Positions 4,888-12,895 of a stretch of DNA of 64,000 nucleotides are shown here, piece by piece. Every line of letters starts with the position of its first letter. The stretch's first letter is position 1. The notes under the pieces were generated by a model that saw only the letters and a list, made by a program, of their open reading frames with translations, had not been told where the DNA came from and ran no database searches. Both the position numbers and the translations under genes were made by a program. Source of the stretch: Christensenellaceae bacterium (GTDB lineage Bacteria > Bacillota > Clostridia > Christensenellales > Borkfalkiaceae); contig JAZLBD010000001.1 of the NCBI GenBank assembly GCA_045613545.1, forward strand, positions 27,332 through 91,331. Reading direction: 5' to 3'.

Positions 4888-5445
4888 TTAATTTTCTAAA
4901 GTCATCGCAAAAATATGCGTAAACATATTATCTGGCAAAACTATTTCTTTTATAATTTTCCTTTGCATAATCTCACAGTTGATATGATGGAAATGGACAA
5001 GATGTGTAGAAGCTCCAGACGTTATAACCGTTCTTACTGTAGACGTGTTTTTCCCATACCAATCGGTATTTTTCTGATCACTATACGGCATATGCGACCA
5101 ATCTATAAACGGAACCCTAATGATTTCCTCGCTTAAATCATCATATACGATTTTGAAATATTCGTTGGTGTCGCCCCAATATGCAAATCCGATGAGATGC
5201 AATTTTGTAGCAAGATCGTTTATCGCTATTTTTTGCCTATCACATACAACGTTATCAAACTGTCCAAAATTAAAGCAAAACTCTACGTCTTCCAAAACGT
5301 CTTGTTCCTTCAATTTTACGTCCGATTTCAAAATACAAATGTTATCAAGCCCAAACTCTTTTCCTTCAATTTCTTTCGGCAACTGTCTATAAACCATTTT
5401 GTGGTTGTAATGCTCTTTAAGATTTATTGGAATAAAACGGCTCAT
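4888..5445 (-). CDS. hypothetical 185-aa protein, translationally coupled to the upstream gene and immediately preceding the RHS gene
   Basis: ATG at 5445 overlaps the TGA of the upstream ORF (ATGA at 5442-5445). There is no TM segment or signal peptide, and I recognise no family (MSRFIPINLKEHYNHKMVY...IFAMTLEN). Confidence 0.55.
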   Translation of the reverse strand: MSRFIPINLKEHYNHKMVYRQLPKEIEGKEFGLDNICILKSDVKLKEQDVLEDVEFCFNFGQFDNVVCDRQKIAINDLATKLHLIGFAYWGDTNEYFKIVYDDLSEEIIRVPFIDWSHMPYSDQKNTDWYGKNTSTVRTVITSGASTHLVHFHHINCEIMQRKIIKEIVLPDNMFTHIFAMTLEN

Positions 5446-6383
5446 TTTTCCTTTCGCACCTCCAAAAGAAAATCGTAAACAACCTTTTCAAGTTCTTCTA
5501 TTTCTTCTAACTTCCTTAAAACGCTATCCAAACGTTTCGTTATATAATCGTAATTATTCTGCGCTTTAACCTTCCAGAAAAGCGATAAAATGTTTGAATA
5601 TCCGCTTACCAAAGACATTATCGACTCTTGTTTTTGTTGGTTTGTGAGGAAAAATTTAGTCTTTGCCAAAGTGTAATAAAAAGTTTTCAAATCGTTTAAA
5701 TAACTCGTTATTTTTTCAATATTTTCACGTGCAGCATCTAAATCATAAGAAACTATTCTGCGCAATTCGTTTAAGTTTTTCAACGAGTTTTCACGGTTAT
5801 CGTTAATTTTTTCTTCGTCAATATATTTCCAAATATCAAACGTACCAACGTTCTTCTTTTTCTTAAGAATATAACAAGAACGTTTCCGATTCAAAATGCC
5901 CTTTCTAAACATCGCATTTGCCAACAATAAATTATCCAGAGAAATAATTTTTTCTTGATACTCATAACTGTTTCGATATTCATGGTCAACTACGTTAGCT
6001 TCCTTATTTTCAACGTCATAACCATACGCCAAAATAAAATGTGGAACATGCTGAATTTGATAAGTTTCTGGACGACTTTCCAAATAATAACAATCCACGC
6101 CCATAATAACAGGATACCCTTTATCAATACAACGAATCAATTTCGCTCTATTAACATTGCAGTGCTCCCTTTTATAACCCAAAAGTTTTTCCAATTTTTC
6201 TTCATATAAGAAACCTTCTTTACCTGCATTAAAATTATTTTGAATTAACGTGAACGCATTGAGCAGAATAGCATCCCTGTCAACTCCAAAGCACGCAATT
6301 CCCGCCATTAATTGATGGTAATAACAACTCTTAAAAAAGAAGTCGTTAAACGGTCTAACCCCAATCATTTTATTCTTTTTCAT
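5442..6383 (-). CDS. BtrH-like papain-fold (Cys/His) protein with a helical C-terminal half; putative carrier-protein-dependent acyltransferase or peptidase
   Basis: N-terminal Cys in FKSCYYHQLMAGIACFG, then GYPVIMGVDCYYLESRPETYQIQHVPHFILAYGYDVENKEANVVDH. This matches my memory of the BtrH_N (PF14399) pattern. GGAGG lies 9 nt before ATG 6383. Confidence 0.5.
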   Translation of the reverse strand: MKKNKMIGVRPFNDFFFKSCYYHQLMAGIACFGVDRDAILLNAFTLIQNNFNAGKEGFLYEEKLEKLLGYKREHCNVNRAKLIRCIDKGYPVIMGVDCYYLESRPETYQIQHVPHFILAYGYDVENKEANVVDHEYRNSYEYQEKIISLDNLLLANAMFRKGILNRKRSCYILKKKKNVGTFDIWKYIDEEKINDNRENSLKNLNELRRIVSYDLDAARENIEKITSYLNDLKTFYYTLAKTKFFLTNQQKQESIMSLVSGYSNILSLFWKVKAQNNYDYITKRLDSVLRKLEEIEELEKVVYDFLLEVRKEK

Positions 6384-6606
6384 TTACTTTTTCCTCCACG
6401 TTATTCGCTATATCCCCCACGGTTTTCCAATCGAAAACGCCAAGTTCGTCAAGTTCAAATTCTATTCCGAACTCTTCTTCCAATTCCACAACAATACTCA
6501 CAAACGTCAAGCTGTCCAAACTTAATAATTTTAGTTCACTATCTAACGTTACTTCTTCGTCTATTGCACAGGCATTCCTAATTATTTCTACAACTCTATC
6601 TTTCAT
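6370..6606 (-). CDS. acyl/peptidyl carrier protein (second copy)
   Basis: 78 aa and acidic, with the phosphopantetheine-site motif LSLDSLTFVSIVVELEEEFGIEF. ATGA overlap with the adenylase stop (6603-6606). Confidence 0.8.
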   Translation of the reverse strand: MKDRVVEIIRNACAIDEEVTLDSELKLLSLDSLTFVSIVVELEEEFGIEFELDELGVFDWKTVGDIANNVEEKVNEKE

Positions 6607-7859
6607 ATTCGCAACTTCTTTCCGCTCGCAGTTCGAGCCAGTTCCTCCACTTTTTCTATTTTGCTTGGTACAATATTAGGATTTAATCTTCCAACGAGTT
6701 GTTTACGAAACTCCTTAATTTCTAAATCGCCAATATATTTCATACAAATTACCGTACCCGCGTCCGTAAATTCCCCAAAAACCAAGCAATCGATTATTCC
6801 GAAAATTTCCTTAACGACATTTTCAATCTCTTCAGGATACACGTTTATCCCTGCTTTTATCAGCATCCCGTCTTTCCTGCCGTCGATATAAAGATACCCA
6901 TCTTTATCAAAATGCGCAGAATCCCCGGTACGCAGCCAACCCTCTTGAATCTTTTCTTGCGTATTTACTGTATCCAGATAATACCCTTTCATTACGCTCG
7001 CCGACCGAACCCAAAGTTCTCCTTCTACTATTTTTAATTCTACGCTGCCTATGGCTTTTCCCACACTTCCCAATTTTTTCGCAAAATCATCAGGCAATAA
7101 TGCGCTTACGCGCGGACTGTGTTCCGTTAAACCATAAACGTTATAAAACTTTGTATTAGGAAATGCCTTAGCTACATTTTCGCTTGTACGGCGGGTTAAA
7201 ACCTCCCCGCTTAATACCCCAACTTTAATAGGGAACGCTTTATCCTTAGCTATAATCGCCAACGTTTGATATAAGGTCGGCGTGGCGCAAAACACGTCTA
7301 TATCCTTTTGCTGAAAAAAGGTTAAAAGTCGCTGTGGCATAAATGCTTCTTCGTAAAAATATATCGTCAACCCACAACATAAGGCATACAATATTTCCCC
7401 AGTTAAGACTGCAATGTGGACAAGCGGACGTGCAACACAAATCGTTTTTAAACCTTGCAAATCAAAATACGTTTCGATGTATTGCAGATTTGAAATAATG
7501 TTCTCGTGCGTCAACATTACGCCCTTGGGTTTTCCCGTCGTACCACTTGTAAACATTAAAAAAGCCAAATCTTCGCTCGGCGCCTGCGGAGAATTAAAAA
7601 CTACGTTTTGAATATACTCGTAATTCTTTTTCCCATATTCTTTCGTTATAGGAACCGCAACGTTACCGCCTGCAATACAAGTCAATATAGAAAGAGCTTG
7701 TCTCTCACGTGTTTCGCCTTCGCATAACACAAAGCGTCTTTCTTGTTTAACCGTCTCCGAAAGATTGAGCAAATCCTTATAAGTCAATCCACTATTGGCA
7801 AATGCTATTCTATCCGCGTACCGTTCCATTTTTGACTTTAGGTATTCCCAGAGTGTCAT
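6603..7859 (-). CDS. stand-alone class I adenylate-forming enzyme (AMP-binding family), short 418-aa form
   Basis: Core motifs LMFTSGTTGKPKGVMLTHENI, YGLTE, GWLRTGDSAHFDKDGYLYIDGRKDGMLIKAGINVYPEEIE and C-terminal SGKKLR. ATGA overlaps at both ends. Confidence 0.9.
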   Translation of the reverse strand: MTLWEYLKSKMERYADRIAFANSGLTYKDLLNLSETVKQERRFVLCEGETRERQALSILTCIAGGNVAVPITKEYGKKNYEYIQNVVFNSPQAPSEDLAFLMFTSGTTGKPKGVMLTHENIISNLQYIETYFDLQGLKTICVARPLVHIAVLTGEILYALCCGLTIYFYEEAFMPQRLLTFFQQKDIDVFCATPTLYQTLAIIAKDKAFPIKVGVLSGEVLTRRTSENVAKAFPNTKFYNVYGLTEHSPRVSALLPDDFAKKLGSVGKAIGSVELKIVEGELWVRSASVMKGYYLDTVNTQEKIQEGWLRTGDSAHFDKDGYLYIDGRKDGMLIKAGINVYPEEIENVVKEIFGIIDCLVFGEFTDAGTVICMKYIGDLEIKEFRKQLVGRLNPNIVPSKIEKVEELARTASGKKLRI

Positions 7860-8089
7860 AAGTATTTCTCCGTTAACGATATAAGACTTGACAGGGTTTG
7901 TAAATTTTCCGGTTGCAAATCGTCGTCCAAAAACGCTACGCTGAAGGCTTCTTCTATGGATACGACAAGCGTAACCAACGATAAACTATCCACGCCGCTT
8001 TCCATTAAAGGCTCGTCTTCTTCTAAATACGCGCCTATCGTTTCTTCTGCTATCTTTACGATTTTTTCTTTGATTTCTTCTCTATTCAC
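7856..8089 (-). CDS. acyl/peptidyl carrier protein (first copy)
   Basis: 77 aa with motif ESGVDSLSLVTLVVSIEEAF. GTG start at 8089 preceded by AGGAG at 9 nt. Confidence 0.75.
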   Translation of the reverse strand: MNREEIKEKIVKIAEETIGAYLEEDEPLMESGVDSLSLVTLVVSIEEAFSVAFLDDDLQPENLQTLSSLISLTEKYL

Positions 8090-12383: not shown

Positions 12384-12758
12384 TTATTCCATTAATTTAT
12401 TTTTTAAGATTTCTTCTTCGTCTACGTCGCCGCTTGAGATATATAGCTCATAAATTTTTTCTTCAAGTTTGCGTTTTAATCGGTAGTACCCACTTTCCGT
12501 AATAGGCAAGTCTAAAAATACGCTTTTATCCCCTACCCCTTGCCTATATACCTTATCAATAATTTCATTCACGATAAAATTATTTTCCGCGACTGTTATT
12601 TTTTGAAAAATTTCTTCTATTCTCCAACACCAATCAGGTATACTAATTCTTTTTCTACGACCATACAATAGAAGCTCCGTTTCGCGTCGTTTTTCTTTTA
12701 CGGATTCAATTATCAAATAATACGAATTCAAAAACTTTCTCAAACTGCTTTTTTTCAT
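12384..12758 (-). CDS. small phage-type transcriptional activator (ArpU/RinA-like, sigma region-4-like HTH)
   Basis: The C-terminal LDLPITESGYYRLKRKLEEKIYELY resembles the YYR.K.KA signature of ArpU-family late-gene activators. I prefer ATG 12758. The track's TTG 12824 start lies inside the leader repeats. Confidence 0.4.
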   Translation of the reverse strand: MKKSSLRKFLNSYYLIIESVKEKRRETELLLYGRRKRISIPDWCWRIEEIFQKITVAENNFIVNEIIDKVYRQGVGDKSVFLDLPITESGYYRLKRKLEEKIYELYISSGDVDEEEILKNKLME

Positions 12759-12774
12759 TTTTTTCTTAGACCCA

Positions 12775-12844
12775 AATAGTCGTTCCTTTGCCTGTAAACA
12801 AGCAAAGGCACGACTATTCCCCAAATAGTCGTGCCTTTGCTTGT
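12775..12844. repeat. three copies of a 21-nt motif (direct, inverted, direct) in the operon leader
   Basis: A is 12775-12795 (aatagtcgtTcctttgcCtgt). B is 12798-12818 (acaagcaaaggcacgactatt). C is 12824-12844 (aatagtcgtgcctttgcttgt). B is the perfect reverse complement of C and an imperfect one (2 mismatches) of A. Confidence 0.9.
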
Positions 12845-12861
12845 TATATTCCGTTGGTTAT

Positions 12862-12895
12862 ATTATATCACTTTCGTGTGCAAAAAAACTGTCAA
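12862..12895 (-). promoter_or_regulatory. candidate sigma-A promoter of the accessory operon (extended -10)
   Basis: The minus strand reads TGATATAAT (12870-12862). TTGACA (12895-12890) sits upstream, but at a 22-nt spacing, which is too long for a canonical -35. Confidence 0.4.

Follow-up and report, generated by a model that had tools for sequence, protein, structure and literature searches.

The 64,000-nt stretch of DNA analysed here (the window: positions 27,332-91,331 of contig JAZLBD010000001.1 from a Christensenellaceae bacterium; all positions below are window positions) contains an operon of twelve genes, g01-g12, which lie on the minus strand within positions 1-12824 and in which the gene for a leaderless RHS/YD-repeat toxin (g12) is preceded by eleven smaller genes running from 12758 down to 4888. 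The latter encode a carrier-protein-dependent, or thiotemplated, enzyme module together with a kinase, a nucleotidyltransferase, a probable beta-helix protein, a holin-like membrane protein and a small regulator. What is shown directly is which genes make up the set, what folds their products have, that catalytic residues in them are invariant and that the association with RHS genes is conserved. It is proposed, with a likelihood that falls a little short of an even chance, that the locus is a conserved composite RHS toxin operon in which the product of the pathway serves maturation or release of the RHS protein.

The linkage is best seen in homologous loci (numbered with the prefix L). A search seeded with g10, which encodes a BtrH_N protein, returned 56 protein clusters, all from metagenomes or metagenome-assembled genomes (MAGs), and 35 loci in contigs taken as one genome per species. 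Some 40 loci in MAGs of Christensenellales and further Clostridia carry the whole set; mapping with hidden Markov models (HMMs) places the full g02-g11 set, referred to here as the block, in the same order in most of these loci, and the block is conserved down to 30% identity of the g10 protein. An RHS gene adjoins the block in 20 of the 24 g10-seeded loci with enough flanking sequence to be evaluated, where, the carriers of the RHS-linked system being MAGs or metagenome contigs, absence of RHS means absence from the fetched 10 kb and not from the genome. The four remaining loci are L010, a partial second copy of the block, L020, in which an RHS remnant lies upstream, L026, which holds g10-g11-g02 only, and L021, in which the block is complete. 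An earlier reading of this stretch, made from its letters alone and called the original prediction below, had suggested that the genes form a conserved unit genuinely linked to RHS, as opposed to a chance juxtaposition; recurrence in dozens of loci bears this out.

Gene order within the set is not fixed. The block begins with a fused g10-g11 gene in L060 and with the ligase module in L062, g02 stands last in L074, kinase and nucleotidyltransferase are reversed in L085, and L001 has both a shuffled order and extra g10-g11 pairs. As the set and its RHS gene are retained despite this shuffling (L001, L060, L062, L074), joint function is favoured over mere inheritance, and no other argument for it is as strong. 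In two loci a gene that appears nitroreductase-like by sequence is inserted between g11 and RHS (L013:11448-12017, L027:11477-11995), and RHS therefore need not directly adjoin g11. A conserved gene of 350-480 aa without a family match, beginning ...NPYRVLVKEEDGITAYYCSVPVY... or similar, stands directly upstream of RHS in three others (L009:11519-12574, L074:8834-9985, L118:8079-9515). At L018/L084 the system is present in tandem, with RHS surviving as short fragments and the adenylase broken into several open reading frames, apparently a decaying copy.

A reciprocal search seeded with the N-terminal 480 aa of the RHS protein gave a different picture for RHS itself. RHS genes with the same N-terminus occur alone in L046 (4.6 kb upstream examined), L050 and L054 (10 kb upstream), and with g03 as the sole block gene in L052, L057, L108 and L114. 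RHS plus a holin-like partner is thus the general unit, and the block with g02 is an accessory of one clade that is almost always attached. Because the block is almost never free of RHS, yet RHS occurs free of the block, the pathway product would appear to serve the RHS toxin.

Within the window the genes are closely packed. The recomputed junctions measure +14 (g01 to g02), +12 (g02 to g03), -26 (g03 to g04), -1 (g04 to g05), -8 (g05 to g06), -8 (g06 to g07), -4 (g07 to g08), -4 (g08 to g09), -14 (g09 to g10), -4 (g10 to g11) and +41 nt (g11 to RHS). ATGA overlaps join g07/g08 (7856-7859), g08/g09 (6603-6606) and g10/g11 (5442-5445), and TAATG at 9960 forms the g04/g05 junction. The recomputed reading frames and overlaps agree with the single coupled, co-directional unit, with junctions between -26 and +41, that had been predicted.

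The thiotemplated module and the adjoining kinase and nucleotidyltransferase

Most of the domains named in the original prediction, namely the dTMP-kinase-like kinase, the PF14907 protein, both carrier proteins, the adenylase, the BtrH_N protein g10 and the YD repeats, were confirmed by Pfam and NCBIfam. The original prediction knew of no layout that matched the operon; this does not hold for its core, in which acyl carrier protein (ACP), adenylase, ACP and papain-like ligase follow the logic of CtaI/H/E/G, AsbC/D/E and BtrJ/I/H (PMC12865890). Enzymes of the CtaG class are papain-like carrier-protein-dependent ligases that possess a Cys-His-Asp triad and a helical C-terminal domain and act by a ping-pong mechanism between donor and acceptor carrier proteins; BtrH and AsbE are structural homologues of CtaG, and AziU2/U3 provide the nearest solved fold (PMC12865890). 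By analogy with these systems, genes g06-g11 are assigned to the recently described class of thiotemplated modules that are independent of nonribosomal peptide synthetases. A papain-like N-terminal domain and a helical C-terminal domain are found in g06 by model and Foldseek and in g10 by its Pfam match and the helical half of its sequence, and in both proteins the invariant residues would supply a catalytic Cys-His-Asp/Asn triad.

The AlphaFold2 (AF2) model of g06 has a mean predicted local distance difference test (pLDDT) score of 93. Its Foldseek matches include the AziU3 chain 8gs1_B (1.6e-4), further ~330-residue AziU3 chains of 8GS1/7WUW and eight CtaG structures (including 9qvq/9quz, at 2.5e-4 to 3e-3), the AziU3 and CtaG matches together spanning E values of 1.6e-4 to 3.8e-3 and TM-scores of 0.5-0.57, followed by C39 peptidase domains. 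C15, D118, H119 and N131 are invariant in 42 sequences, and one homologue, P0209, is a natural fusion to a PP-binding domain. Sequence homology of g06 to g10/BtrH was rejected, as the hhalign comparison is not significant and kinship is supported by fold alone; the earlier description of this 275-aa protein as BtrH-like therefore stands for its predicted BtrH/CtaG-type fold but not for any similarity detectable in sequence. Profile searches of the PDB returned nothing for g06 or g10.

In g10, the invariant residues are C20 and H115, with D123 and D133 close to invariant, and the C-terminal half is helical. The 185-aa product of g11, originally regarded as an orphan, is a homologue of AziU2. 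A profile of 22 g11 homologues matches AziU2/Azi28 at E 1.1e-5, the motifs DNxxCxGQ and LPxxxxHxFAxTL are common to both, and the AF2 model (pLDDT 95), an all-beta sandwich, finds as its only significant PDB matches in Foldseek the AziU2 chains (~200 residues; 7WUW, 8GS1) at E 1e-10 and a TM-score of 0.8; an exact-sequence look-up showed g11 itself not to be on record. In 8GS1, chains A/C (~200 aa) are AziU2-like and chains B/D (~330 aa) adopt the CtaG-like fold, from which, together with its BtrH_N match, g10 is inferred to be the equivalent of AziU3. The two genes travel together: g11 follows g10 in 26 of 28 loci that hold g10 with room downstream (by the family HMM only in L024 and L026, and as one fused polypeptide in L060), and the pair is present in three copies in L001 and in two in L025 and L062. 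Fused versions, with the BtrH_N-like half N-terminal and the AziU2-like half C-terminal, are encoded at L037:11043-12662 (from the cultured strain Clostridium tepidiprofundi DSM 19306), L039:15830-17449 and L060:448-1971. As the genes are adjacent, co-duplicated and fused, and g11 is AziU2-like, g10 and g11 are proposed to form a two-subunit enzyme of the AziU3/U2 type.

The adenylase g08 is flanked by the carrier proteins g07 and g09, each with a DSL serine motif; the nearest NCBIfam models to g07 are AmcB and AsbD. The solved structures closest to g08 are those of feruloyl/fatty-acyl-CoA synthetases, of MenE and of 4-chlorobenzoyl-CoA ligase. In the alignment with feruloyl-CoA synthetase, the g08 segment 'arplvhiavl' stands opposite 'aaplfhaaal' and is taken here to be the acyl-CoA-ligase PL(F/V)H motif, where amino-acid A domains carry FDxS. 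As this motif stands in place of FDxS, the substrate is probably a carboxylic acid without an alpha-amino group.

Upstream of the module, g04 scores 99.2 bits against TIGR00041 (cut-off 83.25) and possesses the P-loop GTDGAGKTT and a CDRY motif, which together identify it as dTMP-kinase-like, its substrate being a prediction. In g05, G96 and D119-x-D121 are invariant and S97 is nearly so, forming a Pol-beta-type motif; no solved homologue was returned by a PDB profile search. The two genes are neighbours in every locus in which both were detected. A thymidylate kinase and PF14907 pair also flanks phosphoenolpyruvate (PEP) mutase in the phosphonate gene-cluster family GCF 540 (PMC8942020), which suggests that g04 and g05 may constitute a reusable activation module.

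The RHS protein, its relatives and the upstream genes

The first 1615 aa of g12 are encoded in the window, and the gene has its own GGAGG ribosome-binding site. YD repeats are detected by TIGR01643 at 1.7e-6 in the window copy and by RHS_repeat at 3e-26 and 1e-12 in the homologues of L001 and L003. The full-length L003 homologue (1957 aa) matches the Rhs structure 7q97 at 2.7e-19, and the Rhs structure 8h8a is matched as well. This homologue has a weak DUF6531 plug at residues 473-548, an RHS core motif at residues 1633-1668 (PF03527, E 2.7e-4, below the cut-off) and ~210 aa after the shell. Homologous loci encode a protein of 108-134 aa after RHS, followed downstream by orphan RHS fragments, and neither the toxin nor the immunity proteins of these loci match any family. 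No signal peptide or transmembrane (TM) segment was found in g12, a TcA translocator or TcB-type N-terminal region was found neither among the operon products nor in the N-terminal 470 aa of RHS, and a PDB profile search with the RHS N-domain gave nothing.

This N-terminus starts with the motif M-G-I-I-K-L-K (4826-4846). All block-linked RHS proteins begin M-[GS]-[IT]-I-K-[LMIF]-[KRM], followed by an acidic linker, and the motif appears to be selected at the protein level because its isoleucine and leucine codons vary synonymously among loci. Block-free RHS genes also have related motifs, and on this distribution it is more likely a signal for release or targeting than an acyl-acceptor site. 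Distant relatives with MGTIKFN- or MGNIKF-type starts, whose N-domains are 30-34% identical over the best segment, sit in prophage late regions: a Holin_LLH/phrog_6918 holin directly precedes RHS, in the position of g03, in two loci (L082:3363-3806, L083:7070-7489), and Gp10_C tail-fibre genes precede it in a third (L093:8249-9756). Such placement suggests either a phage origin or a phage-lysis-linked release for the RHS family. At L069:6947-8723, genes judged from sequence to be holin-like and amidase-like precede RHS, and the relative in L120 has a Sec signal. Two IMG/VR contigs encode tail-region proteins of ~520-560 aa that carry the RHS N-domain without the shell (L122:9974-11539, L123:9644-11332) and have the motifs KENIIVK / PVTIDP in common with RHS; the N-terminal domain may accordingly be a phage-derived binding module.

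The membrane protein g03 had been called holin-like with three TM segments. Two strongly hydrophobic segments, the topology and the position agree with this; the third segment is weaker, and no holin family is matched. It is nevertheless laid out as holins are, being small, with 2-3 TM segments and a charged tail, beside a cargo gene and in a position like that of Holin_LLH in L082/L083. Invariant polar residues lie in the third hydrophobic segment, and the C-terminal motif K-I-[IV]-L-[RK]-G is conserved, block-free loci keeping KIIL/KIIV and losing RG. The window copy and its L052 and L108 homologues have no significant Pfam match and reach in PHROGs only E 0.04, to a family of unknown function; a Pfam scan of 16 g03 homologues likewise returned no holin family. 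The C-terminal motif of g03 (10579-10630) and the N-terminal motif of RHS resemble each other as short amphipathic strands, and the two might pair.

The cytoplasmic protein g02 is the best conserved of the block (63% mean column identity), with many invariant N/G/H/K/D residues and neither a signal peptide nor a TM segment detected. It matched nothing in Pfam, PDB or PHROG; distant members weakly match Beta_helix (1.3e-5, 8e-4) and Pectate_lyase_5 (1.9e-5). Among 1.84 billion representative proteins it has 85 relatives, all of the same size, and on these searches the family is confined to the RHS-block system. A phage or plasmid origin of g02 was considered and dropped, phage and plasmid collections having yielded no match. 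In one 471-aa protein, P0269, the first 85 residues match the N-terminus of g02 at 49% identity and the remainder bears RHS repeats, perhaps through recombination or as a chimera of assembly.

The first gene, g01, is found in about half of the related loci and has a conserved C-terminal motif, SgYYRlKr..eeKiY. Its window copy has no Pfam match; in a pooled scan of g01, g02 and g03 homologues four members weakly match DUF1492 (best E 0.0023), and these matches, unlabelled in the scan output, are attributed to g01. An extended -10 element upstream of g01 fits the transcript start near 12855 that had been predicted; the TTGACA lying 22 nt upstream of it is too distant for a canonical -35, and the promoter region is conserved in L003, L005 and L006. 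In the leader that follows, a scan found a hairpin of 20 pairs at 12799-12843, drawn as a perfect 22-bp stem by our own script, and a third arm (12771-12790) is identical to the 5' arm at 19/22 positions. The same A-A'-A plan, built from different arm sequences, stands upstream of g01 in L007, L008, L013, L040 and L051/L084, and the observation made on 12771-12870 also takes in the sequences upstream of g01 in L005 and L006. Change of arms with the plan kept looks like the covariation of an RNA switch or attenuator; no Rfam family matched the leader. Coordinates of all features are collected in the table below.

Table. Genes and expression signals of the operon (window positions)
Feature	Position	Strand	Assignment	Basis
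g12	1..4846	-	leaderless RHS/YD-repeat toxin gene; start 4846, continues beyond window	YD repeats
g11	4888..5445	-	185-aa beta-sandwich protein homologous to AziU2	profile + AF2/Foldseek
g10	5442..6383	-	313-aa BtrH_N papain-like protein	PF14399 4e-10
g09	6370..6606	-	carrier protein 2, DSL serine motif	PF00550 1.1e-12
g08	6603..7859	-	short ANL adenylase (418 aa), aryl/fatty-acid type	AMP-binding 9e-48
g07	7856..8089	-	carrier protein 1, DSL serine motif	PF00550 5.8e-9
g06	8082..8909	-	275-aa papain-fold carrier-protein-dependent ligase (CtaG/BtrH/AziU3 fold)	AF2 + Foldseek
g05	8902..9960	-	PF14907 (NTP_transf_5) nucleotidyltransferase	PF14907 1.2e-22
g04	9960..10604	-	dTMP-kinase-like P-loop kinase	PF02223 (Thymidylate_kin) 2.8e-27
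g03	10579..11103	-	174-aa membrane protein, 2-3 TM, acidic tail	holin-like by topology and position
g02	11116..12369	-	417-aa cytoplasmic protein, probable right-handed beta-helix	matches of distant members
g01	12384..12758	-	small regulator, 124 aa from ATG at 12758, phage late-activator-like	
5' leader	12771..12845	-	two mutually exclusive hairpins (arm A, A', second arm A just before g01 start)	
Extended -10 promoter element	12862..12870	-	TGaTATAAT, upstream of g01	direct sequence reading

The operon lies in a region of low GC content (35-41% in window 1-14000, against 45-50% in most of the remainder); elsewhere the window holds unremarkable chromosomal genes, among them those for a TrmA-like methyltransferase, threonine synthase, PPDK and an M13 peptidase. 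GC content is low again (34-38%) at 50000-54000, where a GrpB gene and two Xre-type helix-turn-helix genes lie, one of the latter with an FtsK-gamma domain; this too is probably a small acquired stretch. On the plus strand, 26905-26981 matches the Gut-1 RNA motif of Rfam (RF01706, 53.4 bits, E 1e-7), which is unrelated to the operon. Identity as a defence system was rejected, PADLOC having returned weak kinase matches only. No small conserved open reading frame for a precursor peptide of a ribosomally synthesized product was seen, no systematic search for one having been made.

Roles considered for the pathway product

If the pathway serves RHS, the operon could be viewed as a control layer, a toxin and release layer and an enzymatic layer. 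Control would lie with the phage-late-activator-like g01, set behind a leader RNA with two alternative hairpins. The leaderless RHS protein of ~2000 aa and the small holin-like g03 would form the minimal toxin and release pair, accompanied by g02. The adenylase g08 would activate a non-amino-acid carboxylate, aryl or fatty acid, and load it onto g07 and/or g09, after which the ligase g06 and the g10-g11 pair would transfer the thioester onto their catalytic cysteine and thence to an amine. More tenuously, g04 and g05 would supply or activate a co-substrate through phosphorylation followed by nucleotidylation, so that either a head group is activated or a leaving group is created; the parallel is azinomycin biosynthesis, in which AziU3/U2 reportedly acts after sulfate has been attached as a leaving group (Kurosawa et al. 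2022). Most probably an acyl group would be attached covalently to RHS, g02 or g03 and would be necessary for maturation, for targeting to the membrane or for release assisted by the holin-like protein. In its fullest form, which has a real but minority chance, the proposal holds that this clade of RHS toxins depends for maturation on a carrier-protein-dependent pathway of its own, which installs an aryl or fatty acyl group on RHS itself or on one of its partners, the membrane protein g03 or the beta-helix protein g02; the acyl unit may be further activated through phosphorylation or nucleotidylation and AziU-type elimination, and holin-assisted release, or entry into target cells, would depend on the modification.

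Several observations weigh against this proposal. The original prediction had raised the question of whether the block is ever found without RHS, and the two mostly occur together (20/24), but in L021 a complete block stands with no RHS gene in the neighbouring 9.4 kb. A module of ACP, adenylase, BtrH-like and AziU2-like proteins is present in the clusters of L037 and L039, which have no RHS. The cluster itself encodes no phosphopantetheinyl transferase (PPTase). MGIIKLK was considered as the acylation site, a role weakened by related motifs on block-free RHS genes and in prophage contexts; the start motif is also present on relatives with no block in the 3.7-10 kb upstream. As for release, g03 belongs to no holin family and no recognisable endolysin adjoins it. 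An acyl acceptor on any protein, including RHS itself as the original prediction suggested, is a possibility argued from analogy, and the roles given to g02, g04 and g05 are guesses.

Instead, g04-g11, with or without g02, could be a self-contained cluster whose product is a small molecule that diffuses freely. This product, an aryl- or fatty-acyl amide that may bear a strained ring or a nucleotide-derived part, would be no more than co-regulated with RHS as a fellow weapon or would potentiate entry of RHS into target cells. This is the main rival, a genuine if minority possibility. The characterised relatives CtaG, BtrH, AsbE and AziU3/U2 all make small molecules (PMC12865890), a thymidylate kinase and PF14907 stand beside PEP mutase in a phosphonate family (PMC8942020), and both the RHS-free block of L021 and the RHS-free clusters of L037 and L039 are in keeping with it, the neighbours in the latter two resembling, on inspection of sequence, a PPTase and two ABC transporters, joined in L039 by radical-SAM genes. 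The RHS-linked version, however, lacks exporter, PPTase and tailoring enzymes and has one loading enzyme only, its linkage to RHS outlasts the shuffling of gene order across lineages down to 30% identity, and translational coupling extends through the block up to the RHS gene. It is this asymmetric linkage, the want of exporter, PPTase and tailoring genes and the tight coupling that favour a product acting on or with the RHS machinery.

Modification of the producer's own envelope, so that RHS can exit or be displayed, is unlikely. The kinase and nucleotidyltransferase would then generate a head group activated as a nucleoside diphosphate (LicA/LicC logic), the carrier arm would acylate it (Dlt-like logic), with acceptance or shuttling at the membrane falling to g03 and with g02 acting as a beta-helix enzyme on wall polysaccharide. 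LicA/LicC and Dlt are established schemes of envelope modification. Such a role for a wall polymer or membrane lipid draws on the adjacency of kinase and nucleotidyltransferase wherever both are detected, on the invariant polar residues and conserved C-terminal motif of g03 and on the weak pectate-lyase-type matches of g02 relatives. It sits poorly with the lack of any detected MBOAT, LicD-like, glycosyl- or phosphotransferase, with a g02 that has no signal peptide, with a g08 that is not of the amino-acid (DltA) type and with the presence of g03 beside RHS genes that have no block. Finally, the genes could be unrelated cassettes hitch-hiking on one mobile island without a joint function, as the low GC content of the island relative to its surroundings, the rolling-circle Rep and PcfJ/PcfK genes flanking L002 and the partial copies in L010 and L026 might suggest. 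Start and stop codons overlap throughout, however, the set recurs in ~40 loci of many species with its order rearranged, the g02 family is confined to the system, and g10-g11 and g06-carrier protein fusions exist; this conserved co-occurrence largely refutes the idea, which is now very improbable.

Comparison with known systems

The thiotemplated core, as a recently defined enzyme class, and RHS toxins are each already known. As far as could be found, what is new is the conserved union of RHS with such a core, a thymidylate-kinase-like kinase, a PF14907 nucleotidyltransferase, a system-restricted beta-helix protein and a holin-like protein, and likewise the pairing of a BtrH_N protein with an AziU2-type partner in a setting other than the aziridine pathways of actinomycetes. 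The literature searched gave no account of the combination, in line with the original prediction, which put it forward as a candidate undescribed system; the search was thin on subscription papers, and an earlier description is possible. RHS with the holin-like g03, together with toxin relatives in phage lysis regions, offers a testable release model for leaderless RHS proteins of Gram-positive gut anaerobes. The locus is also a new context for papain-fold carrier-dependent ligases and the AziU3/U2 pair, which here accompany a protein toxin and not the genes of an antibiotic cluster, and the g10-g11 fusions and AziU2 homology give a functional handle on two protein families that are now unannotated. 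Should the product be attached to the toxin, a thiotemplated pathway would for the first time be seen to modify a polymorphic toxin post-translationally, and monoderm gut bacteria would possess a new export or maturation route; should it be a small molecule, a new and possibly reactive natural product would be expected from common uncultured human and animal gut bacteria.

Some resemblances are slight. The HlyC/CyaC systems share only the idea that an acyl-carrier thioester acylates lysines of a large toxin; their enzymes belong to an unrelated family, and acylation of RHS is here hypothetical. Dlt D-alanylation differs in that g08 is of the acyl-CoA-ligase and not the DltA type and in that neither MBOAT nor DltD was found by Pfam, and the Tc (ABC) toxin complex differs in its TcA translocator and TcB-type N-terminal region, which have no counterpart here. 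Other RHS/YD toxins (Rhs of type VI secretion systems, WapA, TcB-TcC) have in common with this family the YD shell and, judged from homologous loci, probably also the RHS core motif, a variable C-terminal toxin, a small following gene and orphan cassettes. Unlike them, the present operon lacks PAAR/VgrG, a Sec signal, LXG/type VII secretion features and TcA; its RHS has a unique N-terminal domain of ~470 aa common to phage tail-region proteins and a conserved MGIIKLK start, and a dedicated thiotemplated pathway lies upstream. Holin-dependent release of toxins is known elsewhere, TcdE acting on C. difficile toxins and a holin/endolysin 'type 10' system on Tc toxins and chitinases. As in those cases, a large leaderless toxin lies beside a small multi-TM protein with a charged tail, and real phage holins precede distant members of the RHS family; the differences are that g03 falls in no holin family and that no endolysin is recognisable, so that a release function here is putative.

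The closer parallels concern the enzymes. In butirosin (BtrH/BtrI/BtrJ) and petrobactin (AsbE/AsbD/AsbC) biosynthesis a carrier-loaded acyl group is moved to a free amine by a BtrH-type transferase, and here g10 matches BtrH_N and the carrier proteins resemble AsbD; in place of aminoglycoside or siderophore genes, the operon has two ligases, two carriers and an AziU2-like partner. With AziU3/AziU2 (Vzb10/11; azinomycin/vazabitide; 7WUW, 8GS1) it shares g11, a homologue of AziU2 in sequence and structure, the papain/CtaG fold of AziU3, matched by g06, a g10-g11 couple that behaves as an obligate pair, and a nearby P-loop enzyme (g04) that could install a leaving group. Neither a sulfotransferase nor a LysW-type amino-group-carrier pathway is present among the 12 products, which have a kinase and a nucleotidyltransferase instead, and assignment as an aziridine synthase, for which these would be expected, was not made. 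Moreover, g10 retains an intact Cys/His pair and adjoins a carrier protein, which points to acyl transfer instead of, or besides, elimination, and the host is a Clostridium-class anaerobe and not a Streptomyces. The closthioamide system CtaG/CtaH/CtaE/CtaI of Ruminiclostridium cellulolyticum (PMC12865890), likewise from Clostridia, is built alike: its ANL adenylase stands alone, its two carrier proteins are separate, and its papain-fold ligase, also a protein on its own, has a Cys-His-Asp triad and a helical C-terminal domain; CtaG structures are matched by the g06 model. Sequence identity is, however, ~10%, the ATP-grasp enzyme, thioamide synthetase and other cta genes have no counterpart here, and the present operon couples such a core to an RHS toxin, a kinase, a nucleotidyltransferase and a beta-helix protein.

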